DNA from: Dimargaris cristalligena
Taxonomy: Eukaryota
Assembly (NCBI GenBank): GCA_003614675.1
Contig: ML002227.1
Coordinates: 1 to 64,000 of the forward strand
Reading direction: 5' to 3'
DNA length: 64,000 nucleotides
The position numbers and the translations under genes were made by a program. Shown in pieces: positions 10,486 through 64,000 of the stretch. Each line of letters starts with the position of its first letter. Position 1 is the first letter of the stretch. The notes beneath the pieces are model-generated. The model was not told the origin of the DNA. It worked only from the letters and a program-made list of their open reading frames with translations, and did no database searches.

Positions 10486-11500
10486 CTATTCCTTGGGAGC
10501 GTCAGTGGCCATGTCAGAGTCCTGGTTGGACTCTGGCTGGGGCTCTTCACTGGGCTCGCGGGCGGACTCGTCGTGCTGCTGCTCAGAGGTCCACAGCGTA
10601 AGGTTGTCGCGCAGGAGCTGCATGATAAGGGTGGAGTCCTTGTACGACTCCTCGCTGAGCTGGTCAAGCTCGGCGATGGCTTCGTCGAAGGCACGCTGGG
10701 CCAAATGGCAGGCCTTGTCGGGCGAGTTGGAGATCTCGTAGTAAAAGACGGAGAAGTTAAGGGCCAAACCCAGGCGGATGGGGTGGGTAGGGGGCAGCTT
10801 TTCGTCGGCAATCTTGGATGCCTCGTCGTAGGCCTCCAGAGCGGACTTGGCGGTGGCTTCCTTGCCGGGGCCGGTGGAGAACTCGGCCAGGTACCGGTGG
10901 TAGTCACCCTTCATCTTGTAGTAGAAGACGCTGGATTCGCTGTTCTCGGCCTTGGGGATCAGGTCGTCGGTCAACACCTGCAGGACGTCGTTACAGATGT
11001 CGGCGAGCTCGGCCTCAATCTTGGAACGGTAGGGCTTGACCAAAGCGACGTGGTCGGTGTTACCCTTGTTGTCCTCCTTGTGTTCGATGGAGGACACGAT
11101 GCGCCAGGAAGCCCGGCGGGCGCCAATGACGTTCTTGTAGGCGACGGACAGCAGGTTACGTTCCTCGACGGAAAGCTCACCACCAAGTTTGGCCACATCC
11201 TTCATGAATTTGACCATTTCGTCGTAACGCTCGGCCTGTTCAGCCAGGCGGGCCATGTAGACCTGTTATAATTTCGCGGGGTAAGTCAGTGGATAGGATA
11301 GCGTGAATGATTAGCGAAGTCACGTGAGATCCAGTGGGATGGCGGAATTATTCATAGTATATCCAGCCAGCTGATTGACCCCTATTGATAGTAGACCTAA
11401 GGGGCCACAGATCAAACCAGTGGTAGTAGGGATATGATGGCCAAGGGCACCAGTCAGTGGGGATACCACGACTTACCTTTTCGTCGCGTTCCTGGGCCAT
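10486..11500 (-). CDS. BMH1: 14-3-3 protein, 2 coding exons (11500-11477, 11262-10486)
   Basis: Motifs [79 protein letters not shown]; exon 1 MAQERDEK ends at GTAAGT and joins VYMARL after ACAG. Confidence 0.97.
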
Positions 11501-25592: not shown

Positions 25593-26060
25593 TCAGCGGG
25601 TCGATTTGGCGGGAGGGGGAGGCACGTAGGAATAATTCCAGCCCTTAGTCGGAGGGGTTTCGGTGGGAGCTTTCATCGCCCGGGGGAACAGCAAAGTGGT
25701 GTCTTTGTTTACCGCGCCCTTGAACAATCGGTAGTCAGTTTGGCGCAGTTCCTCAAACGCCGTCTGGATACGCTCGAATTTGGCCCGGGAGGCCAGGTCC
25801 CGTTGGGTGGCCTGCTGGGTGGTGTACAGCTGCCAGGCCCGCTCAATGGTCTCATGGCGCGCGAGATCTTCCGGGGTGGGGGGAATCTCGGGCCGGGGCT
25901 CGGTTTCGAAAAGCACCCGCTTGATCACATCGTGGCGCCGATCGTTGCTCTTGTGTTCGGCGGGCGCGTAGCCGGTCTTGGTTTTGATGAACGTGGAGGA
26001 GCGGGCCGCATTGCGGGTGAAATGGGCCCGGCGGGCTACAGAGAGACTGAGATTACGCAT
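25593..26060 (-). CDS. MRPL28: Mitochondrial ribosomal large-subunit protein mL40 (yeast MrpL28 family)
   Basis: Arg/Ser-rich presequence; RHETIERAW, AFEELR and LFPRAMKAPTETPP motifs typical of mL40. Confidence 0.85.
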   Translation of the reverse strand: MRNLSLSVARRAHFTRNAARSSTFIKTKTGYAPAEHKSNDRRHDVIKRVLFETEPRPEIPPTPEDLARHETIERAWQLYTTQQATQRDLASRAKFERIQTAFEELRQTDYRLFKGAVNKDTTLLFPRAMKAPTETPPTKGWNYSYVPPPPAKSTR

Positions 26061-27557
26061 AGCGAATTCGGCGATTCAGAATAGAAATATATACTAGAAT
26101 AAAGGGAATATTAAGGAGGGGGGGGAATGCAGTCTTGGATCGTAGGTGATTTCGACAAAAGGAATGGATAATCTATCTGCTAACAAAGACCTGGAATCCC
26201 ACCAATGGAGTAATGTAGCTGAGCTGCAGAGGAAAATCGGCGGCTTGATAGTGTATGCTAGATTAGACCCACCACTCCCCCACCCATCATCCTATGCCGC
26301 CCAACTCCCTCTAGGCACTTCCTAGTCCAGCTGAATAGGAGTTGTGTTGTTACACTATGAGGGTATCTTAAGCAGAGAAAGTGTGGGCTATAGGGGAGAC
26401 TTCTCCCCTCCTATTACTTACACCCCCACTAATTCCCCCCAAACTGTCTAGGGCTGGCGGCAGCTGAATTAGGCTAGACAGTGATTAATAATGCCATTAG
26501 AGGCTACTAAACCCCCTCAATCACGAATGTAGTCATCAAACTGCCTAAAATAGAAAAGGGTTATTCCCCGCGGCGCAACCATTCTGCATCATTCCGAAGA
26601 TGCCTGTTGCAGCCAGTCTAGCCCGAAACCCCCCCCAGAGAACCGGGCACTTAAAGTACACGGAGTTCAGAGCTCTCCGTGGTATGGGATATGGAGGTGG
26701 GTCCCTTGGGTAGATCAACTGAAGGAACGTGTGCTTCCAATTGTCGGGTTGGGCCTGCGTCCTTCGATGCACACGTCTAGAGGTGATTGATCTTTGTACT
26801 GTTTATCAGGTAGCGGCGACTAAATTATTTGCCCAGTTGCCCATTGAATGTTAAAATGCACATTGTTAGGTATGAGAAAAAACAAAAGGGAACAGTCACC
26901 CTGGAGTTTCCTTTCCGCCCAACTGACCCAATGAGCCTTCCCTCTCCCTATTCTGGGGCGGGTGATGCCAATGCCAAAGAGGGAGATTTCCATATATTCA
27001 TCACCCACCACCACCTATCACTTCAGCAGAAGTATATTACCATTTTAGTTCATCGCCAGAGTCGGCTTGGACGCCAATCCAACTACACTCCATAAATGAC
27101 CCCGTCTTCCAGATACTAAACCCTCACGCAGGGAAGCCCATTTCTGTTTTTTTGTTGTGCTACAAACCTTGGTAATCCCACTTGGATAACCACACACCTC
27201 TATGAAAAAATAATGAATCGGGGGAAATTTTGGTAGTTGACAGCCCCGGTTGCTTTGGTAACCAGCCCGGCGGGCATACTAGCCCAAAGGGCCAAGGTGC
27301 TCGGACGTTCACCCTTCCCCTCATTCATTATACGGATCGTGGAATATAAATAGTCCCTTCGGCGGCTTCCTATGGAGTACAAACCTCACATGCTATCGTT
27401 TATTACAACACATCGTTGTGCAGTAACCCTTGACCTCAGCCAACCAGCTTAAGCTCTCTTCTTGGGCAATCCGCACTATTTTTTTCGTTTTCATACATAA
27501 TACTGCCCCAGCGCCTTATTTATACCCACCCAATTCTCATATCAGCTTGCCATCACC

Positions 27558-33736: not shown

Positions 33737-35948
33737 CTATTTTTTGGAGGCCCGTCGGCCCGACTGGATAAGGATACCTTCGACCACACCACCCCGTTTC
33801 CGAATCTTTTCCTCCCGCTGTTGTTTCTGGGCATCCAGCCGATCGCGGCGAGCATTGAGGGCCTTGGCCCGCTGGGCTTCGCGGACATTGAGTTTGGCGC
33901 GCACCACCCGTTTGCCGGTCTTGTTGCGACCGCGGGCCCGGTTTTTGAGGGGATTGACGTAGGTCGGGACGTTGGCTTCGGCGGCACTGTCCTTGGAGCT
34001 GTCCGTGGGCTTGTACTGTCCGAGGAAATTGGGGTCCAGGGCAATCATATCGGGTTGGATCTTGTCGAGTAACTGACGAACCACGAGCTCACGACGCTGT
34101 TTGTTGGTCGATAGGGGATTGGCGGTGCTACTGTCCAGGTTGGCTTCACCGGACCCTGGAATCACCAAACTCGAAAAGCCCCCGTGGTGGCCCACGCCCA
34201 ACACATCTTCGTACGGACAGAAGCGGAGGCTTTCAACAGCGGACCGCGGGCTGTGGTGTTCCATGTAGGGTTCCGTTTGCTCGGATTTGAACACATCCTT
34301 CCAGACCTAGAGAAATTAATAATAATAATAATAATAATAAGTCGGCAAATCAACCCAAAGGGGAAGAGGGTAGTAGAGCATAATGGTTGGTATAAATCAA
34401 ATAATTGGTGGAATAGGTTAGTTTAACGATTGGGTGGGTGAAGCAATGGAAAGTGGATGGCAGAATTTGATCCATATGGGAGAAGTTCATCCAAGCTGTA
34501 TAACAAAAAATCCATTAGATTCGGTCAATATTACTAGTTAAAAATCCATTTCCCATAGACGTATAATGTAACCCTTATATAGCTGGGCCGAATTTCACCC
34601 ATATTGACAGTGTCAAGTAGCACAAACGGGGTGAATCCCACTTCGAAGACACTTCCTACACTATTCCAAAAACAATACCAGGCAAAAAATTACTTACCGA
34701 AACGACCTCGCCGGCGCCGAGGGCCACTAATTGCCGTTGACTGATGGTCAGGCAGTGGGGAGTCTCCTTGCTGCGCAACTGGCCCAGACAGCCATAGGTA
34801 CGAATATCGAAGAAGCGGACCATGTGGTCGGCCCCGGCGGTGGCCATGTAGTGACCGGTAGGGTCGACGGCCACGGCATGTACGGAGGAGTTGTGACAAC
34901 GCATCTTAACGAGCGGATTGGGTTGGTTGGGGGACCACATGGTAACCATACCGTCGGAGTGGCCGATGTTAATGATGGCATTCCACGGGTTCAGGGCCAT
35001 GGTGCGGATCGGGCCTAACCGGGGGTTGTGCTTAGCGGCGACGACGCCGGTGGAGATATCCTGGTAGACGAGGTGGCCTGATTCACAGCCGGACGCGAGC
35101 AAGAAATGGTGGGGTAGGTAGGAGAGGACGTTAGGGTCCCGGTGTTGCTTCAGACAATGAACTTCGGCACCGGTGGCGTCGTAGATGTAGGCGTACTGCT
35201 TCTGGGCCACGGCGAACAAACTCTCGTCGTCCTGGAGCCAGGTCACGGCCCGGATGGTTTCCTGGAGCTGGACCTCGCAGGTGAGGTCCCCGCGCTGCCA
35301 GTCAAAAGTGGCGACGTGCCCCTTCCGCCCGCCGAGCAGCAGCTGGCGACCGCTGCGCGAATAATCGACGAAGTAGGGCCCCAGTTTATCCAGATCCAGG
35401 TTGTACATTTTGGCGGCGGTATTGGCATCAACCATGGATTTCAGGGCCTTCTGGGTCACCTTTGAGGTGCGTTCAATCCCTTCGGGTTCCAAAAATCCGG
35501 CATCGCCGACTTGGAGCACTTCAGCCACAGCGGCGGCGGCGGAAGCCTCGGTGTGGTGGTGCACTAGCTGCAGTTTCTGGCCGGTGAGCCAGTCCATCTT
35601 CAGGGTGTCGGTGGGTTTGATCTTGGAGAGCCGGGGCAGTTTGGTGTCGAGCGGACGGGCGTATTTCTGGGCGCTGTCGGCTAACTCGACGTCCACGGCG
35701 GCCACGTCGCCGGCCGAGGATTTCAGACGAGCAGCGACGGCCTGTTTTGCGTACAGGGCAGTGTAGTGGCGGCGTTCCCGAGTGTCGGGGGCCAGGGGTA
35801 ATGGAGCGGGTTCGGCATGGGGCTTGGGCTTAGGCTGGTTTTGGGGGTCGAGGAATTTTAGGTTGGCGAGGCTTCTCTTGATTCGCTGTTGGTCGGAACT
35901 GGGCAGTTCCGAGAGGGCCTTGTTAATGAAGCGCTGTTTTTCCTCCAT
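33737..35948 (-). CDS. UTP7: U3 snoRNA-associated WD40 protein Utp7/WDR46 with BING4CT domain, 2 exons (35948-34698, 34306-33737)
   Basis: GFLEPEGIERT, LGPYFVDYSRSGRQLLLGGRKGHVA, YLPHHFLL, NPWNAII, FCPYEDVLGVGH, PGSGEANLDS, LLDKIQPDMIALDP; phase-0 intron GTAAGT...CTAG. Confidence 0.93.
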
Positions 35949-36437
35949 GGTGCAGTAGATATGTGTGGCAGTGGCTCTCGTTGGTGGTGGTCACTGGACG
36001 ATAAGTTTGTCGGGGCCTGGGTATAGGGCCGGGGAAAGCTGCTATCGAGCGTATAGGGGAAGGAGAAGCGGCGTGAAACAGACAGACACAGGTGACGACG
36101 AAGAAAAGGAAATAATAGTCTAATTAAGCCGTACCATTAGTCCAATGGGTCTCTAAACAAGGTTACGAATAGACTGCAGGGTTTTTGGCAACCTGGAATC
36201 GCTTGCATTGCCCGTATGTCTATTTGTCTCTAATAGTTTTTTTTCGGGGGTAATATACACTCTCTTTTATGCTATACTATACTTGGACACCTCTAGTGGG
36301 CGGGAAACGCATATATTTCTTCTTTTTTTTTTCTCCTCCCAAAAACACAGAGCCAATTGACTACTGCTGTAGTATAGCACCATTTCTGCTATATGGGTTT
36401 GGGGGTTTTCAGTGCCCCCAATAGCCCCGGCTTACAG

Positions 36438-36896: not shown

Positions 36897-37601
36897 ATGT
36901 TCAAAAAGTAAGCATGTCTACCACCCTGGGCTATGCTCATCTTCCGGATCTTCTTTAAGTAGCTCTTGAAGTGGCAACGGTCACCTCCCTCTTATACACC
37001 CCATTAATATCCAGCTACCCATCGGCTTATAAATCCCACCATTGCTTCACCTCCCCGTTCCCGCAGGGTCCATCCCAAAGAGGACATTGCCTCGCAGAGT
37101 CAGGTCAAGTCGTCGGTACAGCGGAACATCCGCACCAAGCTCCTGGACCAAATGCCGGAGCTCGAGAAGCACCTGGACGAGCTCATGCCCAAGAAAGCGG
37201 CCCTAACGGTGGTGAAGTTACGCGAGCACATTAGCCTGGTGGTGGTGAATGGCGAGGTGCTGTTCTTCAACCATTTCGACGAGGCGTACTACCCGACGCT
37301 GAAACTGCTCCACAAGTACCCGGCCCTCTTACCTAAGCTGCAGGTGGACCGCGGGGCCATCCGCTTTGTCCTGTCGGGGGCCAATATTATGTGCCCCGGC
37401 CTGACGTCGCCCGGGGCCCGTATGGATGTGTCGCTACCCGAAGGTAGGGTCGTGGCGATTATGGCCGAGGGCAAAGAACATGCCCTGGCGGTGGGCATCA
37501 CCAAAATGTCCACGGACGATATCCGCCAGGTCAACAAGGGCCACGGGGTCGATACGATTCATTATTTGGGCGATCAGCTATGGAAGAGTCTATTCGAATA
37601 G
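36897..37601 (+). CDS. TMA20: Translation machinery-associated protein 20 / MCTS1 (PUA domain), 2 exons (36897-36907, 37067-37601)
   Basis: MFKK micro-exon; VKSSVQRNIR, PTLKLLHKYP, VDRGAIRFVLSGANIMCPGLTSPG, AEGKEHALAVG, HYLGDQLW. Confidence 0.95.
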
Positions 37602-38491
37602 ATCGACGAAGGATATAATAAATAGCCCTGGCACTTGCCAATACCCGGAAATTAACTGAGTTGGCTCATGAGACATGTCAATGTAATGTATGGCCTTGGA
37701 GGGCGTGGATTTCCCGGCCTGTATTGGTTAGTTAGTTATATAAGATGTCCTTACTCATCTTTTCCATTTGGGGTCTGGCCACTTCCCTTAAAAACGGAGC
37801 CTAATTATGTTATAGAGGCCTAGTTAATCCCACACCACAGTCACAACATACCAACGAGGCCCGTTTGCCAATGGAAATGGCGAGACTAGAGAGAAAAGAC
37901 TGGTTTGGTAGAGATGATACGGAGCCCCTCAAGTCACACCCCCCTCCCTATTTCTACGTCCCTGGGCCAGTTGGAAGAAGAGGGCTTTAGAATGAAACGG
38001 CGGGTCTGGGCCACACCAGGTGACCATGGCCAAGTGACCGCCCCGCTCCAAGTATAGAGAAAACGAGTAGTGCTTTTGGCTGACTAAATTCTCCTTATTC
38101 TGTCTAGTCGTGCCTTCCCACCCTCTGAAGAAACTCTCTCTCTGCTTTAAGTCTCCCCCGCCCACTGACTGCTGCATTCGTGAGCCGTGCGGACTTTCAC
38201 TGCTGCTGCTGCTGCTTCTCCTCAATTCCCTTACCTTTTCCTTCTTCTCCTTTACTCTTGCTTTTCTCCTTTTTCATCTCATCTACTCCATCCGACTCTC
38301 TACTACCTCCTTTATCTTTCGTCCTCGGATACGGCTTATCCAGTGCTCTTCACCAAGCCGGGTCCAGCAAACTGATGACCTTCCGCTGACTCCTCTTTGC
38401 TACGGCTCCCGGTCCCCCCTTCTTTTTAGCTATTATTATTTCCAAACACCCTTTTCCCTCTATCGCCCCCATATATATATAGCCCCTCACC

Positions 38492-39892
38492 ATGAACTTG
38501 GGTACCAAATCCACCAATGAAATTCTCTTCATGAATTTCAACCAGGACTACAGCTGCATCTCCGTTGGCACCCGTAATGGCTACAAAATATACAACTGCG
38601 ACCCCTTCGGCAAGTGCTATTCGCGCGAGGACCACGGTGTCGGCCTGGTCGAGATGCTGTATTGCACCTCGCTCATTGCCGTGGTGGGCTCGGGAGACCA
38701 CCCTTCATCCTCGCCCCGCCGTCTACAGCTCATCAACACCAAGCGCCAGTCCACCATCTGCGAGCTCACCTTCCCCACCACCATTCTGGCCGTTAAAATG
38801 AACCGCAACCGGCTTATCGTCGTGATTGAGGAGCAGATTTATCTCCATGATATCCAAAACATGAAGCTCCTGCATACTATCGAGACCAGCCCGAACCCCG
38901 CCGCCGTATGCGCCATGTCCCCTGGTCCCGGTGGCTGCTATATTGCCTACCCGTCCCCCACCGGGTCCGCCGTGGGTACCTACACTACCACCGCCGGCAA
39001 CAGCTCGCCCGACGCCAGTGCAGGCGCCGCCGGCTACCACAGCCAGACCTCCGGGGACGTGATGATCTTCGACGCCCTCAGTTGCCAGGTCGTCAATGTC
39101 ATTCAGGCCCACAAGCGGCCCGTCTCCTGCATGGCCATCAGCCCCGACAGCACCATGATTGCCACCGCGAGCGACAAGGGAACCGTCATTAGGGTCTTCT
39201 CCTTACCGGACGGCAAGAAACTGCATCAGTTCCGACGTGGCTCCTACCCCGCCCGCATATTTTCCATTTCCTTCAATGCCACCAGTACCTTACTGTGCGT
39301 GTCCAGCGATACGGAAACCGTGCACATTTTCCGACTGGACAACGGTTCGGGGAGTGAGCCGCCTCTGTCCCCCCGTTCCCTCGGCCGACCCCACAGCATT
39401 GGCCGCAGCCATTCGTACCGCGGGCCCGCCAGCCCACCCAATTTCCTGGGTGCCGAGGGGGGCGAGTATACCCCAGGGGAGGGGGATGAATCCCTCCGAG
39501 GAAACGGTGGCGGAAGCGGTAGTACCGCCGCGTCTTCCGCCACAAGCTCAACCCTTCCCGCCCGCTTTAGTGCGGCCACTGGGGTCTTCCGCCGCTCCTC
39601 CCTCCAAGCATTCATGAGCAGCCGGCTGGTGGGTAGCGTAGGCTCCTATCTGCCCGAGGCCCTCACCGAGATCTGGGAACCGTCGCGGGATTTTGCGTTC
39701 CTTAAGCTACCAGCGACCGGGATCCAAAGCCTAGTGGCCCTTAGCGCTTCGACTCCACAGGTCACGGTGATTACTGCCGAAGGTTACTTTTACCAATACT
39801 CCATTGATTTGGAACAGGGTGGCGAGTGTGTTCTATTGAAGCAATACAGTCTACTCGACGTAGGCGATACCATGGGCACTTATATGACCTGA
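38492..39892 (+). CDS. ATG18: Autophagy PROPPIN Atg18/WIPI (intronless)
   Basis: FNQDYSCISVG, ICELTFPTTILAVKMNR, ATASDKGTVIRVF, phosphoinositide-binding FRRG, SSDTETVHIF, EPSRDFAFLKL. Confidence 0.95.
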   Translation: MNLGTKSTNEILFMNFNQDYSCISVGTRNGYKIYNCDPFGKCYSREDHGVGLVEMLYCTSLIAVVGSGDHPSSSPRRLQLINTKRQSTICELTFPTTILAVKMNRNRLIVVIEEQIYLHDIQNMKLLHTIETSPNPAAVCAMSPGPGGCYIAYPSPTGSAVGTYTTTAGNSSPDASAGAAGYHSQTSGDVMIFDALSCQVVNVIQAHKRPVSCMAISPDSTMIATASDKGTVIRVFSLPDGKKLHQFRRGSYPARIFSISFNATSTLLCVSSDTETVHIFRLDNGSGSEPPLSPRSLGRPHSIGRSHSYRGPASPPNFLGAEGGEYTPGEGDESLRGNGGGSGSTAASSATSSTLPARFSAATGVFRRSSLQAFMSSRLVGSVGSYLPEALTEIWEPSRDFAFLKLPATGIQSLVALSASTPQVTVITAEGYFYQYSIDLEQGGECVLLKQYSLLDVGDTMGTYMT

Positions 39893-41580: not shown

Positions 41581-42076
41581 AATGTGGTGATGATTCTTCT
41601 GTTATATTATATATAGTACGGGGGGGGCATACGCAGAATCCTTTAATAATAATAGTAGTAGTAGTAGTAGTAGTAGTAGTAAAGAACCCGCTCTGTCGAC
41701 GTTGCCTGGTCTCTTCTCCATCTCTAGCTCGCTTAGTTGGTAAGTCCTTTTACATTGCCCTGTTTCTGCCAGGCTCAAGTATCGTCTCCGTCTGCTATAT
41801 CTATCCACACCTCCTTAGCCACGAATCTGTTAAACCGGGCCTATATATCCCCCCAACAGGCGTGTGACCTACGCCCCCCAACTCTCTGCCTCACCTTCCT
41901 CCTCCGGTCTAATTTCTATAACGAGCCTCATTGCCTATTTGGTCCCCCTACTTGCTTTTCCTTACTTAGAAGCCTCGGTTCCCCCCTCACTCTCCCTCCG
42001 TGCCTATTACGTTCCCATTCTTTCTTTGGCAGCGCTCCCTAAATCGACTTACACTTCTACCGCCGCTTTCCAAACC

Positions 42077-42883
42077 ATGTTGTGTCTAAAACCCAGCTCA
42101 TTGGCCACTGCCTTTCTCCGCCGGTCCCGGCCGTTGAATACCGCGGCCCCAAGTCTACCGTCGGCGATGCGCCGCTTTACCACCTCGGTTGACGGATCCA
42201 TCCCCACCCCCGCTAAATCCGACGACTCGTGCCTGCGTCTGCTGATCGTGGGTGCCCCAGGTGCCGGTAAGGGAACCCAATCCGCCCGCATCCGCAGCGA
42301 GTTCCCCGTGTACCCCATTTCCAGCGGTGACGTGCTGCGCCGGCACATTGCCAAGAACACCACCATCGGCCAACGGGCCGCGCCTATTGTGGCCCGCGGG
42401 GAAATGGTGCCCGATAACATCATGGTGGATCTCATCGACACCGAACTGGACCAGCTGGACCACGAGCATTGGCTGCTGGACGGGTTCCCGCGTTCCGCCA
42501 CGCAGGCCCAGCTCCTGAGCAAGTCGCTCGAGGCCCGGCGTCAGCCCATCAACACCGTCATTAACCTGGTCGTCCCCGAAGACGTCATTTTACAGCGCAT
42601 CGAAGACCGTTGGGTGCACGTGCCCTCGGGCCGGGTGTATAATTTGAGTTACAATCCCCCCAAGACTCCCGGTCTGGACGATGAGACGGGCGAGCCCTTG
42701 ACGAAACGGGCCGACGACAATCCCGAAGTCTTCAAGGCCCGGCTACAAAAGTACCACGAGCTGACGAATCCGTTGCTCGAATACTACGATAAGCTCGGCA
42801 TCTTGATCTCCTTCAAGGGTAACACCTCCGACGAAATTTACCCCCAGATCCGGGACTACCTTACCCCCAAGTTCGCCCACTAG
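42077..42883 (+). CDS. ADK2: Mitochondrial GTP:AMP phosphotransferase (AK3-type adenylate kinase)
   Basis: Presequence from ATG 42077; P-loop GAPGAGKGTQ, ISSGDVLR, WLLDGFPR, LID RWVHVPSGRVYNLSYNPPK, TGEPLTKRADD. Confidence 0.92.
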   Translation: MLCLKPSSLATAFLRRSRPLNTAAPSLPSAMRRFTTSVDGSIPTPAKSDDSCLRLLIVGAPGAGKGTQSARIRSEFPVYPISSGDVLRRHIAKNTTIGQRAAPIVARGEMVPDNIMVDLIDTELDQLDHEHWLLDGFPRSATQAQLLSKSLEARRQPINTVINLVVPEDVILQRIEDRWVHVPSGRVYNLSYNPPKTPGLDDETGEPLTKRADDNPEVFKARLQKYHELTNPLLEYYDKLGILISFKGNTSDEIYPQIRDYLTPKFAH

Positions 42884-43788: not shown

Positions 43789-45230
43789 ATGGCCCTTGTA
43801 CCACTTCGGCGGGCCACAGCCTGGGGCCGCGTCCCGGCTCAGTACAGCGGAATAAAGGTAAATGCCCGCGCCGCCCAGTGGCCGATTGGCCCTGGATCTG
43901 GCTCAGTCGGCCTCGGTTCGCTAGTCCATCTTATGTCTGGGGTGATGTGGTAGAAAGCGTACCTGTCACGCACCCCGTCTCTAAGGAGTGCAATATCCTC
44001 AAAAGCCCCTTAATAACACATTATCATATCCCTCTATGCTTGCCTCTGTGTCTGTCTCTTCCGCTCGACGACAATTTGAACGCCATGCTAGGCGACTCCC
44101 GTGGGTTTACCTTTGGCTGCTTCCGGTCAAATTCGGCTTGCTCATGGTGGCAGGTAAGTTTACCCAACCGAAATACATATGTGCATGGCTGAATCTCCAT
44201 AGATCACCATTATATATATATATATATATACCAGATCCTCTACAATACACCGATATCGGTGCCATAATTGGTTTGACCACTGTTACGTTAGTTTGTAAAA
44301 TACTGGCATTAATGACCAACCCGAATTTAACACCATTGCATTCTACTGTATGTATCATCCTCAGCCAACCCATCATGGAAGCCATGGACCGGATCCTTAA
44401 ACTGAACAAATATAAGCCCATGACCGCAACCCACTCCCCCCCGCTGCCCGAGGCTCTGGCCCGTAAGTACTGACTTCTACAACCCTTCTGGAAACCCTGG
44501 CTATACCGGTATATCATTCTACATGCTCTCATAGATTCACACCTGCCACTTTATTAACCTTGTCTAACTACTCTCTATATCCAATTATGAACCACCGACT
44601 CGACCGCCTACAGCCGCCAAACAAATCCCCGCGCCCGTCGGCCTGGTAAGCTGCAACCTCCATTTCGAGTCCTTTTCCGATCACCGAATAGAATTTTACA
44701 TGGATTTCATCCGCAAGGTGGCCCAGACCATGAAAGTCTCGTGTAGCCAAACCGTCGGTCTGCCCACCCACACCCAGCTGTGGACCGTGGTCAAGTCCCC
44801 CTTTGTGCACAAGAGCGCCCAGGAGAATTTCGCCCGTTTGCGGATCAAGCGGATGTTGCAAATCAAGGACACCCACCCCAAAACGTTGGAAAAATTCCTC
44901 GCTTACGTGGAGGACAATTTGCCCGCCGGGGTGGGTATGCGAACCCACTACTTCGAGTACCAAACATTGGCCGAAGCCGTCAAAGAGGCCGAAGCCGCAA
45001 AACCACCTACGGAGGAACCCCTCTCGCCGCGCCATATTAAGGTCATCGCTGACCGTTTGATCGCCCACATGCAGAAGAACCCCACCGCGTCCATCGATCA
45101 GGTCGCCCGGGATATCATCAAGGAGGTCCGCCCCGACTCGGTACCCCCCGCGATTAAACTCCCTGTCAAGCCGAAGCCCAAGAAACCCGAAGCCCCGCCG
45201 GCCCACGCCAATTCCGGCAAAAAGAAATAA
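43789..45230 (+). CDS. RSM10: Mitochondrial ribosomal small-subunit protein uS10m, ~281 aa, 4 exons (43789-43857, 44092-44153, 44365-44462, 44614-45230)
   Basis: LPTHTQLWTVVKSPFVHKSAQENFARLRIKRMLQI S10 signature, LPAGVGM; consistent splice phases. Confidence 0.9.
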
Positions 45231-45981: not shown

Positions 45982-48234
45982 TTAGCTAAACGAGCCGGCG
46001 GCCTGGCGCCTCATATCCCAACGGAGTAACTCTTCGTACACGGTCCATGAAATCGATGTGCTAATCGCTTTGCGGGCCACCCGCAGGGCCGCGCCTCGGA
46101 AGAATCCGTAGAAGCCCTCATCCTAGTATTAGGATTCAAAAGATATTGGTATCATAGCAAGAATGCAAAAACCAAAATTGTATTCGATGGATAATGCATT
46201 AATTCACAATACCCATTTGCCCAAGTATTATGTATGCCCACAGCCTAATAGGCCTACATATTATATCTTAGGAGCCATTCCTGATATAAAACGGGTAAAT
46301 ACCTCGGGATAACAGGGTTTTGGATAGTATATACATGGCAGAACTCATTGGCGGAAACCCTTACTAAGGCCATATGGTGTAAATCAAACTAAACAAGGCG
46401 TCTCCCACCCCTCACCACCTCCCGTATCAGCTTTTTTGGCCCCCTTACCTTCACAATGACCCGAGCTGCCTGCCACATCGTCCTGTATAGATCGGGTTTG
46501 AGTTGCATCCGGGTCTTGATCATATCGAACGGTTGGGTAATAAGGGTCGCGGAGATCCCGGCCAACATTCCCGCGGCCATTCCCGTAGCGGGGACCGGCA
46601 GGCGGAGGGAAAAGTAGCTATCCAACAACATGGGGATCTGGAGTTTAAACTGCTCGTATACAGCAATGTACAGCCCGGCGTAGGGAGCGTCCCGTAGCAC
46701 CGTGGGGATATAGCCGGAGAAAAAGCCCCGGTAGCCATCCTGGGCGATGATGTTTTTAGTCGCCGAATAGAGGCTATTGTAGTTGTAGAAATTGCTCTGG
46801 TGGTTGGATGAATAATAGTGGTAAAATAAGGCAATATTACATAAGCAAAAACAGAAAATGAATAGACAAGGGCGGATAGTTCAGGAGGCAACCACATACT
46901 CCCCTTCTCTCTATAGATTTTGTTTATTCAAATAACACCCTTGATTTGAGTGGAACAGGACCTACCTCATAGCGCACTTTGATAACGGTAATGGGCATTA
47001 GGATAAACCCCACCAGGGCCCGGGCTGACGAACCCGCAATTAAATTGCTCGTATTCGATAGCACGACTTTCTGGGATCCCGCTGGTAAAGAGGAGTCCCG
47101 GGCCGCGGCCTCGGTCACCCGATCGCTGGGATGGACACCTATGTAAGCCTCCGCTTTGGCCAATACTTGTTTAAACTGATTAAGCATGGCGAAGTACGCT
47201 GCCGAACCCGGGGCATTTCTAAGCGATTGGTGGAGTTGTGGGGAATACATCGATACAGTGCCAACCGGAGAGAATGAGTGAGCTACACTAAGTATAAGCT
47301 GGGTAGCGGATTCGTCTCTAACGATAGGGTGAACAACCCCAACGCTAACTTGGAATCAATTCCACGTAAATTGGTTTGCCGATTGGGCGGGGTGTAAACG
47401 GGATTTGGGTTGGCTGACTGACTCCGCCTGTTTAGGCAGGGACCAATCAACTATCGCTCTGATCCAGTAGCACGAGTTGAAGCATGAGTTCTCTATATTT
47501 CATAATTACAACCCATGTATCTATATAGAGGGTCTAACCTACCTTATCACGGTGGGCCAAGTGCCCCGCCAGAGACCCAGGACCCCGTTAGTCGAAACCA
47601 CTTTTCGGACAGTAGTATACAAAGCACTATATTTATCGTGGATCAATAGAGTGGTCAATGGATGAATAATTTCATATTTGGGGTTTGAACTGAAGTTCAA
47701 TCAAGATGATTTGCCAATTCCCTGGGGCGAAACCCCTTTCTGATACTCACCGCAGTAATTCAAGATCCAGCAGAGAGAATATACATTATCGTAGCAGTGG
47801 CTTAAGGTATGTCTGCGCCACGCAAAACTTGTCTATTTCATACATACCCTCCTCCTCTCCTTTCCCCAACCCAACTTATCCCGAAGTATACCGACTGTAT
47901 GAGCTCGGCAAGCCACACCCGCCAAGTGCAGGGTATTGCTAAGTATCATGTTTTTGATACCAAGGGTATACAATCCCCGAATTCTTTTTTTTTTAAAAAA
48001 AAGAAACAACAACCCCATGAAAATAGAGAATCGGAAACAACAGATTCCGCTGGCTTACGTTTGGGTGGGCCGGACATTTTTGATATGGTTGGTGAATGAG
48101 GGCCCCTGTTCCTGCTGTAAACGAGTTTTGAGTAAATCGAACGGTTGGACTATCACACAGCTGGTGAATCCACTCACGCCACCGGCCAGGAAATGGACTA
48201 TCGGGGATACGTTCTGGGCATTCGTGGCGGACAT
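45982..48234 (-). CDS. HEM25: Mitochondrial carrier, glycine transporter Hem25/SLC25A38 type, ~333 aa, 5 exons (48234-48059, 47626-47543, 47218-46966, 46796-46449, 46122-45982)
   Basis: Three carrier repeats: QPFDLLKTRLQQ, MPITVIKVRYES, QPFDMIKTRMQL; LWRGTWPTVIRNAPG, LRDAPYAGLY, RVARKAISTSISWTVYE. Confidence 0.88.
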
Positions 48235-49190
48235 GACGGCGTATATATTTATATATGTATGTAGGGGGTAGCCCGGAAAAGAAGTGGTAAGGATCTCAGG
48301 AACCAGTAGGGGAGTATGAGCGGACAAATGGACACGACTAAGGGCAATGGTAACGCAGTAAAGTAGAATGCGTTGGCCGAATGTGAGGAATGGGGGAAAT
48401 TGGGTTAATATATGCAGTTTATGAGAACAAGTAGGAAGTAGGGGGACACGGGGCGAGAGAGGGCAATATAGTAGTCGGGGTAGGAAAGCGAATGAGAGTG
48501 CGAGTGATGCAGTCAATGGCTAACATTCGTAGTGCGAAAATAAGGTTGGAGGATACAAGAACTGCTTCCAAGGAGCGGATACCAGTGCTGCGCACGATAT
48601 TAATATGGGGAGGCAAACAAGACAAATGGTCACAGGAGCCTCAGTAGGGTGGGTGGCCGTAACAAACTGTTGGAAAGGCAATGTAAATATAGAATAGGCT
48701 TAAGGAACCACTCTACTTCGCCATCACACGGTTATACAGACCAGCCTAAAACACCAAAAATTAAATATTAGTAAATCAAGGATCAATGGATATTTGATAA
48801 AAACAATTTAACCCAAATGAATACCCTCTAAAGTGTTTATTAGACTGATATCTTCAAATTAATGACCGAATTTTATATATATGTACAATAGAAATGGGGA
48901 CCAAAAAAAATAATCTAATGTTAGTATGCAATAGAAACAATAAACAGAAGCCTGTAGATATGAACCATTTAAGGACAGAGAAATAACCACGGGTTGAAAT
49001 TGAAGGAGGTGCCAAAAAGAACATCCGCAAAACATATAATCAAAAACAATGTACTGAACTGGGTAAATATAATAAATGTACAAGAGGGAAATACGGCAGT
49101 AGGATCTCAAAGTCCAGCCGTTTAGATAATCATGAAAGGTCACAGCTAACCATGCCAATCGGATAGAATAGGGGGTTTCTTTAGGCTGCA

Positions 49191-59100: not shown

Positions 59101-60821
59101 GACTGGTATCCAGGTCGCACGGGTGGTGGTCCCCCCGTTTTCGGAAGACGGGGCGAGGCCAGATTGGCTATAGATTCGGCCGACGGTATGGTGGTTAGAG
59201 GCTCAGGTCGCGCGGATACCCTTGCCAGAACGGGGCCAGTTGTAAAGAAGGTCGGACGCTCTTGGAAACTGCAATCATCCGTGGACTTTCTGGACGCAAT
59301 AGGTGAGGTCGAGGCCGATACGGATGGTTTCCGAGATGGCTGGGGAACCATAGGGGAGGCCGGGAGGGGAGCCAGAACAGCGGCGGGTAGTGGAGCACTC
59401 TGGGCCAATGGGGGGTCTGTAGGCGACAGATCAGGGGTGTCAGCGACGGTGAAATTACGAACACTTAGTTTTTTGAGTTGGCCATCCAATGGGAGTCTGG
59501 GGGTGCCAGGCTGGGATTGGAACCATCCGGTGGGTACATCGATGGGGGATATAGAAAAAGGCAGCTGGGGCTCCTCAAGATTGAGGGGTGGGTATGTAGG
59601 CCCATTTCCTTCGGTATAGCTGCGGTGGTATACAGGCGATAATGGACCGGTTCGGGTTAGATTAACGGTGATTGCGCCGGTGGGGTCAATTTCCAAAGGC
59701 CGCGTAGGGGGGACTTTACCGTCCTTGTGTGGGACCAGGGGAGATTTAGGTGGCAATTGGCCGGATAGTGGGTCGTCCGTACCCGTCCCAACATTGGGGC
59801 CGACACTGTTAGACTGACGGGGTTTGGGCTGGCCGAGGATGGTCTTGGAGGGGCGAATTAATTTGGATTGGATAGAATTAAAAAGGCTTGTACCAGGGGC
59901 AATGGGTATGGGCCTAGGCTTGGTGGTGGTGGCGGCCGTGGTGGTGGGCGACGAAGTAGGGGAGGTCGCAACCACTGGTGGGGACAGTGGTTCTTCCTGG
60001 TTAGTAGTAGCGATGGGTGCCGCAACAGCAGGGGTAGCCAATGATGGATCAAAGTTAGAGGGACTATCGAGAGAGGCTGTGGCGGGGATGGAAACCCGGC
60101 CCTGTGGGGAGGACTCGCGACTCCTCGGGAGGCGGTTATTGGGGGCCGATGAGGCCAAGATTGGAGTGCAGCCAGCCGCTAGTGAGATGGGAGAGGGGAT
60201 TGGACTGGGTTTGGGCAGGGGACCAGTAGTGGTATTTTCCAAAGGCTCACTGAGTCTCGCACCAGGAGGACCAGGAGGGAAAATACCGGGGACAGGACCC
60301 TCGGAAAGGGGGTGCGATGGAGGCGGCGGGGGCGGCGGGGGCGGGGGGGTATTCAAGGGGGGTGAGTGGAAGGGGGACTGCCGCGCGGGAGCGGATGTTG
60401 ATGCAGCGAACGGCGGCGGAGCGTTATCCACAATGTCCTCTAATTCCCGGTTCGACAGGGGCACGTCCAGGGAAAAAATGGAACCCTGGTCATCGTCACC
60501 TTCGTCGAGGTCGCTGCCGGAGTAATCGGCGGATATTTTAAGCAGGCGTTTCCGACGGGCCCGCTTGCCTAGGGCGCCCCTTATGCGTTTCATTTCGTCC
60601 ATGACTTCATCGTACTTTTTAACCACCTCCTCGGGCACCAGGGGGTTGGCGTTCACGGGGATATCCTCCTCGATTTCAATTTCGATTTCCCGCGAGAGCG
60701 AGGGTTTGGATGGGAGCGGCCGGGAGGCGGACATGGTCGGCCTGGCGAATGGGGATTGGTTGGGAGCGGTCGAGCGGGAGGGCAGAACCGGAGACGACGG
60801 TTTGCCGGTCGGAATGACCAT
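50145..60821 (-). CDS. Giant intronless Pro/Ser/Thr-rich, probably disordered protein (~3558 aa from first ATG)
   Basis: 10.7-kb stop-free frame; first ATG at 60821 (track starts at GTG 60839); abundant SP/TP and PxxP motifs, short helical N-terminal island, acidic tract; no recognised globular domain. Confidence 0.85.
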   Translation of the reverse strand: MVIPTGKPSSPVLPSRSTAPNQSPFARPTMSASRPLPSKPSLSREIEIEIEEDIPVNANPLVPEEVVKKYDEVMDEMKRIRGALGKRARRKRLLKISADYSGSDLDEGDDDQGSIFSLDVPLSNRELEDIVDNAPPPFAASTSAPARQSPFHSPPLNTPPPPPPPPPPSHPLSEGPVPGIFPPGPPGARLSEPLENTTTGPLPKPSPIPSPISLAAGCTPILASSAPNNRLPRSRESSPQGRVSIPATASLDSPSNFDPSLATPAVAAPIATTNQEEPLSPPVVATSPTSSPTTTAATTTKPRPIPIAPGTSLFNSIQSKLIRPSKTILGQPKPRQSNSVGPNVGTGTDDPLSGQLPPKSPLVPHKDGKVPPTRPLEIDPTGAITVNLTRTGPLSPVYHRSYTEGNGPTYPPLNLEEPQLPFSISPIDVPTGWFQSQPGTPRLPLDGQLKKLSVRNFTVADTPDLSPTDPPLAQSAPLPAAVLAPLPASPMVPQPSRKPSVSASTSPIASRKSTDDCSFQERPTFFTTGPVLARVSARPEPLTTIPSAESIANLASPRLPKTGGPPPVRPGYQSGPFSRPHTAGLGPADPEKSAPPHPVSAQLPISPFQATDSVVQSSISPNRISSGHAHTPAEPSPHSESMMSENSDTASTHPHMVLKHVQRQHAAENSKRASNELLRSLSRRQRDSRDSYNASYSSDISFGVGSSFGHRSPPSSRTSLPSNSVLSDVLEEKGISFDAFSSRRSSDPLANRFSVILPTGAGSVVTSLPLVPESPTPVAKSQSAGHSFDLHLPASTADPGGNWGHPPPLSPRSSEQLLRSVGSPPLFADDIDISSPSPAFTHASQPQSPGISTYRPISLSPVATPTQGLALTTPLILSPLPPTPREHSSPSMDSMDQGNITSMVAAQSPTQPDTSYVLDNHIYRLSDPTFLNFPPPDTHPNRSQRASASSAVGLAPRDNPIQSTPRKSTSTFTSEYSYGSGYTSPVIKSSAEIAQEIADLDQQLFSMNYSLSALPQMEDPNNFEANYYDYSTPIVPTLLHDDTSPYGGLPDPSRSTRSSPDFLPADDVSSVRPHVGQTPIVVVGSDQPVTHSSLAPKEPVQSPPLAEDPADIANALDALLNDHVRSRAHSGHHQSDSQSNKSSRTSRSSGAATSPSVASPMKPQVEPPRSPSLIAHERQVDSILLDIERQLNEQVASSGEVSPSVGARLLSELGLSGPPPSHSTNLASKCGADKPTILTTMPGPLPPKKGPTLHSPVPISTSDPILEDYIPLEIPVHFRQIRAPYPRSAPSGRRPIGAKIFVGPRSSSATPTPSRSPDIDQHDLGVKPASARSSIAPTTVINPYSSAMGKNPPKVEAAMTFTTHGKATDLSAITDMAAILKSRDSGTSTPVTPTRTQALVPNHNHVPSPGRSSRNSSQSITSPLPTTQATNTSPQASPKSAQLLLETLESELSLEMAKLGGSPVSTRSLSPTERNFLSAEVAPKSASLDQPRSMPIATTPLLRGSTEHPPVATSPAPLMSGSLSRLNQSRSPSPKKIADIVKLYSPTLSSPLDFAPVLTTSPLAVSTRSPSPSVAPGLFTDVIRALSPPLLPIQSSHDMPPRVSPVIHTFTSEPTTELNRSVSSPPVSPITSGDQAPSSTTPKSLISTVGSVSPPQSPTVPLRIASPLVESDLTSTTSRSSSELTKSTPPSPTLTVPARGVPSPVEVITSPVVCEPVLEVVQISSPRLSPALPSLSRSPPTVSDFASVANELRDDSFVPPTYSSVDPASPKPVARAAEAPSPSVSPGLPYQSVSPPRITAFSSVSPGPLVVAPEVSIYSVACSPPHVPLELATPRTESVPFIDNTKPMASPPPATAPTTNATLLTSPRTESVSFNGNGKSTASPPPPAVPISSATPLASPRTGSVPFIDNTESTASPPPTAVPIANATPLAFSHTEPAPFIDIRKSMASPPSATVPITNASPSVSEPGSAFIASQSSTKLTSPASALGSASPPVSTSAQPAAPSDKPETSRSGQSQAPASSRSKIDQLMADLMAHQEVVDLMSTRKPQPGKLLNRFPPASSGTAGTSDRSQSVPVPTTVSAIRANYQRPQAISETFAKPHQIGTPLSAKQLSFRNAVAPVPTPIESKDVPRNDNLAPLPLTQQVVPRDSPELSAPVRGVPNRSSPMTPPQLSVFQMRRESTDSLNQSIKSEGPQPSFLPGKDGQASPGDHTSTSSPIKQVGSPDNFIPDHQYNDQSLPVPVVTYAETSQSSLASPPSIVNEDCRERSPSPHPKGIPSLSLASESEKTHPFPLPRGTSPNEQIESILPPTSLSRSYGTSPVEHWIATGHYSPSLRHSPAPLLKAIDGPAQNGNTQLQPETSYSQSDDLPCATSVTPLNNLSAHSNQSAAIDSQAPWQPESEFKPNRKRIFSTDLKSGLCPIIEGSSQEEASPIFTPTAQNGMGEEVSTTQYLTTAPTIPLVTRPSFHSLRSTYSYIHTCSISSLDLSPDFTPEQLGLMTELGYPERPLQCARPELPPASSFSLDVDAENYAYERAGGMYRPSMDYMDSAADPYFLSDRSLDDVPQDTHHRAEFEPKTVSRNLSDPSIADDDVDPEQDKGNYNDTDEDLPRAKDHHSEDEQEDEEDGVDDDDEFDFEIVTGHSTSFIENRVSEERVVGVQKAQALRLSAQSFASILSASRRNSQSSIQSHISARYSREFGPATHLSPFAKPFGREGHLMVPASPTPAIIRSGGSPRPDPVRPSSSPEPPPTLLVPSPSGTPVPFPADTHSSSLSSESAPASDLDPLSSDDEEIGQAAIVSVAAPLRQGSYTMAPIQSPLVYSNLGQLKADPAQSARQSPAAPPRTHSSINGSPLHLSASTGQARYSSSSVTQACGDSPTAPANVTGQAAFVQPASPTESESRPKVASPIVPASAAIAALEQPTPPRSVSPTEHQPSPVMVATTVSQWAPPTEPVPIALPRPTSPLEHSLVSTNHLSVGPTTLQAAEREQSTLAQTATYPQRDLSPTNPELDRRPVGPAMIADHPVSTWPHLPPEYGSSPAPSSRAPKTANSSRPRLPQQQISSPEILTSTPVRAVELQGHRVLASNATSVTPPAKSDYLPSTRPVPPPVRADRVSLVGSSTVTQLPTPRRSDDRGGAKLSSERMAHPIAGDTPVAFASPPDSVVVRELDSHYPPTANQLTEPLRWSQEQSPGLTFAVPSDKNLTADYLPPHKAYTENAPVDRVPFPHMPPSMPEVVEPLLRQSRPTMIGMPTSSPVVGSRPAAHPSGLVPPQPFSQYAPDRLSTISLGAWSEMARDESYNAMLVAQWAEHRPPFSAVVHSSGSGTPSRELSQPPSWGDDEFSGFESFMAFSFSEDSHGRTPASGSPAPLKLEASEELPKNVQTRLRGLIPGDLLNGLDAKLAPPTAAAAARPPLPPRPPPSGKSTGAWSSLSSWWSRPNSASSPIPKHSVPAPTPPPVARLARPTRPALRHYRFGKRLCDQLLDQQANQPTATTGNWNRIWKTRRTRQIFHFSLDIPMDLDEFHSELRSSLFSQSRISSSHSRQNSDHLNMKNSHGPRRH
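54937..55326 (-). repeat. Coding tandem repeat, ~4 x 99 bp (33 aa, consensus about SPRTESVPFIDNTKSTASPPPAAVPITNATPLA)
   Basis: GTCAATAAATGG recurs at 54996, 55095 and 55293 (spacing 99 and 198); four aligned 33-aa units in the translation. Confidence 0.9.
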
Positions 60822-63059
60822 CCTGGGAAGAGTTGGCACGGGCAGAGGCCGGCGGAAGAGTGTATGCGAAGCGGACGGTGGTTAAGTAAGACGACGGGCC
60901 AGCCGGCTTGGCTGGGTAAAACGATTTTTGGGAATGTTTTAGCGGACCGCGGAAATAGGCCAGGCGGAGGAGGAAGAAGAGCGGTGGCGGCAGATGGGTC
61001 AGTAAGCGTATCGGAGACGGGCGTGGCGGATATTAGAGAAAAACAGAGCAACGCAGATATAAAGCAGTTATAGAAAAGAGCGGAGCAGAGGGATGAGAGA
61101 ACAATAGGGGTTATGTAAGCAGTCTGGGGTTGGAAAACAAGAATCCTAAAGAGAGTCCAAGCAGATATAGAAAAGGAGGAGAAGGGATCTGAATGGCACT
61201 GCTGAAAGGAAAGGAAAGGGAGTGACGAGCAAGGTGGCCGTGGTAAAAGAGGGGAAAAGAAACTCGTTCTGGTCAGGATACCTTAGCAGCCGCCAGGAGA
61301 GGTTTTACTACGATCACGCATACACAGAGAGCCGGCCCGGGTTGCTGTCAATGCCAAATAAATGCAGTCGGTTCTGGGAAAGCCCCTCTCTCTCTCTCTT
61401 TCTCTCTCTTTCTCTACGGCAGAGACGCTCAGAACGAGAAAAAATGCCAGCTGGCCGATTAGGAGTCCGCCGGAAAACAACAGAGAGCGGCAAAGAAGGT
61501 GGGCATAGTTGGAATTAAACGAATGAGTGAACAACATGTCGCACCAACCCCGCGCCCGCGGAGCCGTCTGCACCACCTCGGGGCCGGGTCGTCATTGGAA
61601 CGGGCATTTTGTGTCAGAAGGTCTTCGTATCTCTCCGGCCAGGAGGCATCGAGTCTTCTTCCAACGAATACCAACGGTGATCCCATTTATTATGGTCGAT
61701 GATTCGCCCTGACGAGGGGTCTTTAGGCTGCGCACTTGACAGAGAGAAAAAGGTTCCGCTATAGTCTAAGAGACGTATAATCCCCACAACGGGCTGGTTT
61801 GGCCAATCACCCGATCGACACAGTTCCTATTTTATTATATTATAGTATAATGCTGAGACGACTAACAGCCCGTTTGGAGGGCACTCAGCCCTACTGACCC
61901 GTTTTTTTCATCGACGCTGGTGTAGTGAGAATGGATGGTCCGTCCAGGGGCGCCTACTGTCACTCCCCTGTCCCGCGCTGATCGAGTATAGTAGCGGCCG
62001 TCACCATAGTACCGATGCTGTCGACCAGCTGGCGGGACTAAAAAAAAAGAGGAAAATCCGGACCAGCTGGGCCCAGACTTTCTGATCCCCGCCGCCGATT
62101 CAGCCCGCGACGGCCTCTTTCCCCCATTGTTCCTGGCCCCCTATAGCCATTCTGAACTGCCCTGGACTGACCAATCCACGCCCCGCCCTCTATTTATATT
62201 GGGACTTGCATTATTATGGAGGCAATCTCACCACGGCCCTGGGAAATGGATTTCCGCTATCATCTCCTTCCGCCCTCCTCTGCTGGGTTTTTATCGCTTT
62301 TTATTATGCCTGTTTGGTCATTCATAACCAACTTTGCCTAAATTAATAATGGTTTGGGAGTGGATAGTGGGGGGCTGGCCCTGACTCTCAGCGCCCTAGA
62401 ACGGGCAGTGCCCATGTATACGCATGCGGACTAACTGAATCTGGCATGAACTTGACCATTTCCCTGCCATTGCCAAATGTACCCGTCTAAATAGTGCAGT
62501 GTCTGAGGCTCGGATAGGATTGTATTGTATTGGGTATTTATAGTACTATTAAAGCGGGTCTCGACTACTTTATTTGCAGTTCACACTCCATAACTGTTTC
62601 TTCACGAATCGCGTATCATTATCCTACGCATCAACTTTGAAGGCTAATACAAGAGACCCACTAAGCACTCTTGTCGGAATTCCAGCTCAGCTTCGACCCG
62701 TCTCGTATTTGCCGAAATATGCCGGATTGTTAGTGTTTAGCAGGAAGCGGAACTTCGACATTGTCTTATCTGCAAATAAATGTAACCCAACCGCTGCTGC
62801 AGCAAAAATAATAATATACAGGGCAAAAAAAAGCAACAAGGAGACAAGAGTGACCGACCACTCCCACCACAAGAACCTATTTCATTGAATATATTCGCAT
62901 TTTCCCAGGTATATCCTACAGCCACCAATAACAGAGTATATGTCTCTGCCACAGTGGCTTCAGCCAATCTCATTCCCACCATTGGACATCTCTCTCGTAA
63001 TCTATTTTAGAAAAGAATCGCTAGCCGTCGACATCCACCTGCGCCCATTCTCTTCCATA

Positions 63060-63865
63060 ATGTCCGACATTGCCGCCATGAACGACGAGTTGGCCCTACT
63101 TCAGAAGAAGGTATGCTGTTTGAAGAAGAGAATCCCCCCCCCAATCAATTACAGCCGTAGCCCCCATGCGGCGCATTACCTGGGTTTCAGAGTAAAAAGG
63201 CAGTTGTAAGCCCTAGTTGTAGCCCAAAAGCCACCCAAGTCTTGTCAGCCTCACCCATTTTGCCTTGTGTAGCACACCCTCTTGCTGAATGGCCGAACTA
63301 GGTCGGCATGTTCAATGTCAAACTCACTCAACTTCCCCATTGCCGCTGTATCTCTCTACCCCTACCCACTGTAGCAACAAGAATCAATGGTCCTCCAAAG
63401 CGAGTTGGAAAACCTCAAAGATACTAGAGTAAGTTTACTATACTGAATACATCCCCACCCACTCTCACTGAGATGTGATGTCAAGTTGACTAAGTGTTTG
63501 TGATTCTGGGCGAATTGTTTGGGGTCTAGTGTATTAACTATTCCGGTTGATGCTTCATTATATATAGAAACTGTACACCAGTCGGGCCCCAGGTGGCATC
63601 TTCTTTGTCGATAAGCGCCAGACTATTCAGACTCGTAACCAGGGTAAGTTGTCCAAATGACTGGGGGGCCGCAAGTTGTCCCCGAGACCAACGAGACCAT
63701 GTCCTCGGTTTACAAAAATGACAGAATTTAGGTATTACGCCTCGCATTATAACCAAACACCCCTCTATCTACGCAACTGCTACTATACCCCACCTAGCCT
63801 CGCAAAAGGAATTGACCAAAAAGATCCAGGATTTGGAAAAAAAAACTGGGCCAAGGGAACAATAA
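63060..63865 (+). CDS. ASDURF-like small beta-prefoldin protein, 82 aa, 4 exons (63060-63110, 63375-63428, 63568-63643, 63798-63865)
   Basis: Spliced product MSDIAAMNDELALLQKKQQESMVLQSELENLKDTRKLYTSRAPGGIFFVDKRQTIQTRNQASQKELTKKIQDLEKKTGPREQ; helix-hairpin-helix layout; ELENLKDTRKLY...GIFF resembles the ASDURF EL.NLK..RKVY...NIFF pattern; canonical phase-consistent splice sites. Confidence 0.75.
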
Positions 63866-64000
63866 TACCCCTACCACGAAATAATACAAAGGGTCTTCCA
63901 AACTACACAGGAGATACCAACTGATTGCGGGAAGGGGATAAAAATAAATCAACACTAATATCCATTAAACATATTCCTGGCATCCGTCAAATAATAAGTG

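Follow-up and report, generated by a model that had tools for sequence, protein, structure and literature searches.

Near the end of the window, by which we mean the whole stretch of 64,000 nucleotides that was analysed, lies a small gene of four exons on the forward strand, between positions 63060 and 63865. Splicing the four exons in silico gives a coding frame of 249 nt, that is 82 codons followed by a TAA stop, and the spliced product includes ELENLKDTRKLY and GGIFFV. The features of the gene, and one downstream of it, are the following:

63060–63110, plus strand: exon 1, 51 nt, residues 1–17, start of the N-terminal helix, with an A at –3 of the ATG
63111–63374, plus strand: intron 1, 264 nt, from GTATGC through a pyrimidine tract to TGTAG, phase 0 (after residue 17)
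63375–63428, plus strand: exon 2, 54 nt, residues 18–35, end of helix 1, containing ELENLKDTR
63429–63567, plus strand: intron 2, 139 nt, from GTAAGT to TATATAG, phase 0 (after residue 35)
63568–63643, plus strand: exon 3, 76 nt, residues 36–60 and one further base, with a central KLYTSRAPGGIFFVD, presumably the beta hairpin, and the beginning of helix 2
63644–63797, plus strand: intron 3, 154 nt, from GTAAGT to CACCTAG, phase 1 (within codon 61)
63798–63865, plus strand: exon 4, 68 nt, residues 61–82, C-terminal helix and TAA stop
63943–63948, plus strand: AATAAA, a possible polyadenylation signal (weak evidence in fungi), 78 nt past the stop

All three introns carry a pyrimidine-rich tract followed by AG at their 3' ends. 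The exon frames, when read on into the introns, run into stops at 63207, 63444 and 63658, i.e. after 5 to 32 codons, and none of the four exons gives a stop-free stretch with at least 40 real residues. We queried the protein database with a 47-residue stop-free frame ending in exon 4, and a single protein of 82 aa (P0001) was returned, to which our spliced model is identical letter for letter. This protein corresponds to KAJ1990541.1 (hypothetical protein H4R33_001684) and RKP40080.1 (hypothetical protein BJ085DRAFT_34224), both from Dimargaris cristalligena, and to UniRef100_A0A4Q0A493, which is named 'Prefoldin' and recorded on 2 contigs, the longest of 70,827 bases. The same four-exon model, as a gene of its own, has been reached by two public GenBank annotations, and the protein is consequently already public, under an uninformative name ('hypothetical protein' or 'Prefoldin'). 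The first-pass annotation had described a four-exon gene with exons of 51–76 nt coding for an 82-aa protein with the motifs quoted above, in an early-diverging fungus. The open frame, the GT..AG introns and the identical database protein confirm the first part of this description, and the second agrees with the placement of the host in the Kickxellomycota, class Dimargaritomycetes.

Another in-frame ATG is present at 62940–62942 on the plus strand, with no stop between it and exon 1. Were transcription to begin further upstream, this ATG would add 40 residues, predicted to be non-helical. With a T at –3 it stands in a weak context, and it is used by neither public annotation.

Profile searches of the 82-aa protein against Pfam gave two families of nearly equal score. 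The top family was PF21975 (ASNSD1-SEP), with an E-value of 7.7e-6 and 26.4 bits over residues 14–75, corresponding to profile positions 27–88 of 96. The second was PF01920 (Prefoldin_2), with an E-value of 1.2e-5 and 25.6 bits over residues 4–76. Both scores are just below the curated gathering cut-offs, PF21975 by 0.6 bit (cut-off 27 bits) and PF01920 with its 25.6 bits against 27.6, and the 0.8 bit between them makes the two families practically tied. The remaining five Pfam rows had E-values of 0.011 or worse, and the precomputed Pfam list held for this protein in the database names both PF21975.1 and PF01920. The profile comparison of ASDURF with canonical prefoldins thus falls narrowly, and not decisively, on the side of ASDURF, and the Pfam scores taken by themselves are too close to tell ASDURF from a generic beta prefoldin.

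These matches also bear on the reality of the gene. It might be supposed that the four exons are a chance set of short open frames that the prediction programs and the first-pass annotation had joined, and it is true that no orthologue was retrieved in our searches and that exons and introns do not differ in G+C content (0.466 versus 0.472). Against such a chance assembly, two related Pfam families match with E-values of about 1e-5 over all four exons, and the only two GTAAGT sequences in the 806-nt region from 63060 to 63865 fall exactly at two of the frame ends, where they serve as donor sites for introns 2 and 3 (the whole window has 24 on the plus strand, or 0.38 per kb). Furthermore, the predicted model described below has a helix-connector-helix architecture, and the neighbours of the protein in the ESM Atlas all belong to one clan, as the ten best matches do for a third of shuffled proteins. 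The two significant Pfam matches, which extend over residues 4–76 and so over all four exons, are the chief statistical support for a splice model that represents a real protein and not a product of chance. We regard it as highly probable that the gene is real, and the chance assembly as very improbable indeed.

Searches for close relatives returned little beyond the protein itself. A word-index search with the full protein, in a near length range, gave 1 candidate, which was P0001. The 30-aa piece from exon 3 was compared with 1.84 billion representatives and had 2 matches, P0001 itself and a 251-aa protein (P0002). P0002 matched in 5 stretches with 33% identity and an E-value of 1.1e-6; it is built from a unit of ~29 residues repeated in tandem about six times, and we judged the match to be spurious, a chance result driven by the repeats. 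Peptides from the exons taken alone (30, 23 and 22 aa) gave nothing in Pfam, where a GnsAB_toxin row with an E-value of 0.11 was considered a chance hit, and 0 matches in the PDB.

Embedding neighbours in the ESM Atlas were more informative about the family. The three nearest clusters were all ASDURF-labelled, at 0.90, 0.88 and 0.88, on a measure in which 4 to 10 of every 100 shuffled proteins also score 0.9. The clusters at ranks 2 and 3, of 85 and 76 aa, partly carry PF21975, and the length of 82 aa lies within this range of ASDURF-like clusters. The 85-aa cluster is commonest in Streptophyta, and PF21975 is found in 14% and PF01920 in 16% of its members. A weak and ambiguous Pfam signal may therefore be usual for the non-animal forms of ASDURF. 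The best cluster carrying Prefoldin_2 only was lower, at 0.85, and when the clusters with PF21975 were set aside the best ones, a 66-aa oomycete cluster and clusters of archaeal prefoldin-beta, had scores of 0.85 to 0.84. Given the calibration with shuffled proteins, we take the Atlas result as supporting evidence, short of proof.

The protein could also be a beta-type prefoldin other than ASDURF, either a shortened and divergent canonical subunit of the PFDN1 or PFDN4 type or a fungal PDRG1. The Prefoldin_2 profile comes within 0.8 bit of ASNSD1-SEP and covers more of the protein (residues 4–76 versus 14–75), the UniRef name is simply 'Prefoldin', and the GG before IFFV may resemble the hairpin of canonical beta subunits. 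On the other hand, ASNSD1-SEP is still the top Pfam family and the three closest Atlas clusters bear the ASDURF label. Moreover, the 82-aa protein is shorter than the canonical beta subunits and PDRG1, whose lengths exceed 100 residues. A phmmer search of the protein against the 177,635 distinct sequences of the PDB did not match any prefoldin chain at an E-value up to 10. As this library includes human and archaeal prefoldin, the result argues against an orthologue of canonical PFDN1/2/4/6; the PDB rows that did appear, for thioredoxin-like 2, glutaredoxin-3 and Lmo0741 (E-values 0.06–0.44), were judged to be chance. A non-ASDURF beta prefoldin is accordingly considered unlikely.

With these comparisons in hand, ASDURF is the best-supported specific assignment of the 82-aa protein. 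We consider that the locus, a separately annotated nuclear gene with four micro-exons, encodes a beta-type prefoldin-like protein with a presumed short strand-turn-strand centre between its N- and C-terminal helices, and that this protein most likely represents ASDURF in the fungus, with a probability of about two in three. The first-pass annotation had called the product an ASDURF-like beta prefoldin. The beta-prefoldin nature is supported, and ASDURF is indeed the best-scoring specific family in both Pfam and the Atlas; the more precise part of the claim is weakened by a PF21975 score under the cut-off and level with that of Prefoldin_2.

The structure of the protein was predicted with AlphaFold2 from the single sequence, with no alignment. 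The model has helices at residues 3–32 and 51–76 joined by an 18-residue connector, with a mean pLDDT of 76. The connector was modelled as coil (pLDDT 57–60), and the beta hairpin is absent from this single-sequence model. The predicted helix-connector-helix arrangement would suit a short beta prefoldin. Foldseek gave 49 matches in the PDB at E-values up to 10 and none at E-values up to 0.001. A wide VIA-align search had a best Z of 8.3 and 696 chains at Z of 5 or more, all of them generic helical hairpins, and the filamentous prefoldin 6vy1 appeared at rank 48 (Z 6.6, rmsd 4.5, 78 aligned), which is within the noise. The fold searches with this predicted model thus speak neither for nor against a prefoldin.

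Human ASDURF is translated from an upstream open reading frame on the ASNSD1 mRNA, and is described among conserved bicistronic transcripts (PMC13303939). We looked at the surroundings of the fungal gene. The 135 nt between the stop and the end of the window (63866–64000) contain no ATG. The AATAAA at 63943 lies in this stretch, together with 3 A/T-rich look-alikes at 63880, 63964 and 63990. Among the 87 stop-to-stop open reading frames of at least 110 aa in the window, Pfam found no member of the asparagine-synthase or glutamine-amidotransferase families (68 frames were scanned at E-values up to 1e-5, 17 at 1e-3 and 2 at 0.1), in a type of scan that can miss an intron-rich gene with short exons. 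In the 2.2 kb upstream of the gene, back to the 5' end of a large minus-strand frame at 60881, neither a coding sequence nor an RNA family could be recognised. Eight frames on both strands between 61171 and 63921 were scanned without a Pfam family at an E-value up to 0.1, except for an AzlD row in a neighbouring frame (E-value 0.045) which we consider to be chance. The search for a longer, fused form sharing words with P0001 gave 67 candidates and none that scored at an E-value up to 10, which is weak evidence by the tool's own account.

As in animals, the mRNA of an ASDURF-like gene might nevertheless continue beyond position 64000 and include a second cistron, be it ASNSD1 or a different gene. 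Just 135 nt separate the stop from the window end, an AATAAA says little in fungi, and, with a recorded contig of up to 70,827 bases for the protein, there is more DNA downstream or upstream. Opposed to this are the lack of an ATG in those 135 nt, the 82-aa product of its own in both GenBank records, the lack of an Asn_synthase match in the 87 frames of the window, the weakly informative search for longer proteins, and the fact that the plant orthologue is free-standing. We find a second cistron improbable. The window up to 64000 and the two public annotations agree with a free-standing gene, presumably expressed from a monocistronic mRNA. The stand-alone gene put forward in the first-pass annotation thus fits with the missing downstream ATG, the AATAAA and the separate 82-aa annotations, for as far as the DNA was seen, which is to position 64000.

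Between 50145 and 60881 on the minus strand there is one stop-to-stop frame of 3578 codons, Ser/Pro-rich and apparently largely disordered, in which no Pfam family was found at an E-value up to 0.001. This frame is unusual for its length and for its lack of introns in a genome with intron-rich small genes. No tRNA was detected in 60800–64000, and Rfam gave only one sub-threshold row there, a mir-2941 precursor at 62501–62566 on the plus strand (25 bits versus a gathering score of 60, E-value 0.011), most likely a chance match. From 10489 to 49000, ordinary housekeeping genes were recognised on both strands in the Pfam scan, as fragments of open reading frames:

10489–11265, minus strand: 14-3-3
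13681–15108, minus strand: ITFG1-like FG-GAP/C2
17127–18245, plus strand: SacI phosphatase
25596–26075, minus strand: mitochondrial ribosomal L28
31403–32956, plus strand: 2-oxoacid dehydrogenase E2
33740–35990, minus strand: BING4CT and WD40
37008–37598, plus strand: Pre-PUA/PUA
38483–39889, plus strand: PROPPIN
41834–42880, plus strand: adenylate kinase
44568–45227, plus strand: ribosomal S10/S20e
46392–48519, minus strand: mitochondrial carrier

If the protein is the fungal counterpart of ASDURF, its role may be proposed by analogy with the human and Arabidopsis systems. It would fill one of the four beta positions in a prefoldin-like hexamer made of URI/Bud27, UXT, PDRG1, PFD2, PFD6 and ASDURF. 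The central hairpin would enter the double beta-barrel of this hexamer, and the two helices would make one coiled-coil 'tentacle'. As a member of the complex, the protein would have a chaperone function. A more specific name could be given to the protein once orthology is confirmed, and the practical value of this would be small.

For the evolution of the family, the point of comparison outside animals is the Arabidopsis gene At1g49245, whose annotation reads 'Prefoldin chaperone subunit family protein'. It is presented as an ASDURF orthologue on the basis of phylogeny, and its product co-purified with UXT, together with URI, PDRG1, PFD2 and PFD6 (bioRxiv 10.1101/2023.12.13.571423, PMC10893143). 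In the first-pass annotation the free-standing fungal gene was said to bear on how the bicistronic arrangement arose. This was overstated, since At1g49245 has already been described in print as an ASDURF gene outside animals that stands free and whose product is bound to the complex, and the evolutionary point is weaker for it. What is new here is a fungal addition to a known family, which is modest and not surprising. Judged by titles and the opening lines of abstracts, none of the papers found that name both ASDURF and fungi has a fungal ASDURF as its main topic. Yeast is described as having Bud27 only, with the prefoldin-like complex absent (PMC10893143, PMC8567396, bioRxiv 10.1101/2023.12.13.571423).

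It is quite possible, as a tentative reading, that early-diverging fungi such as Dimargaris keep a full module of URI, UXT, PDRG1 and ASDURF with PFD2 and PFD6, which was reduced to Bud27 in yeasts, and that ASDURF exists there as a micro-exon gene standing by itself. Such independence would hence be ancestral in eukaryotes, and the capture of ASDURF as an upstream frame of ASNSD1 would be a later event of the animal lineage. With an ASDURF-type subunit in a zoopagomycete, the absence in yeast would have to be read as a loss that took place inside the fungi, and not as a trait of the whole kingdom. The fungal point beside the plant one would show ASDURF to be, as a rule, a gene like any other, its status as an upstream frame in animals being derived, and the time of the capture could then be dated by sampling holozoans and fungi.

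Compared with known systems, the protein has a predicted general architecture like that of the canonical beta prefoldins (PFDN1/2/4/6, the yeast Gim subunits and archaeal PfdB), and its Prefoldin_2 match, at an E-value of 1.2e-5, is significant. It differs from them in that this match scores under the cut-off, that no PDB chain was matched and that the Atlas clusters with Prefoldin_2 only are at 0.85 or less. With At1g49245 it has in common what seems to be a free-standing gene, which in a non-animal organism codes for a small prefoldin-like protein of the beta type. The Arabidopsis protein was found bound to its complex by affinity purification, and the fungal protein is a candidate member on the basis of its sequence. 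Human ASDURF has 96 residues, is encoded in the ASNSD1 5' leader over four exons, and works with the prefoldin-like complex (PMC10187264). The fungal protein has 82 residues, and unlike the human frame on the ASNSD1 mRNA its gene has neither a downstream start in the 135 nt that follow nor an ASNSD1-type domain among the open reading frames of the window. Like human ASDURF, however, it is predicted to be a small helix-connector-helix protein, and its coding region is likewise distributed over four exons.
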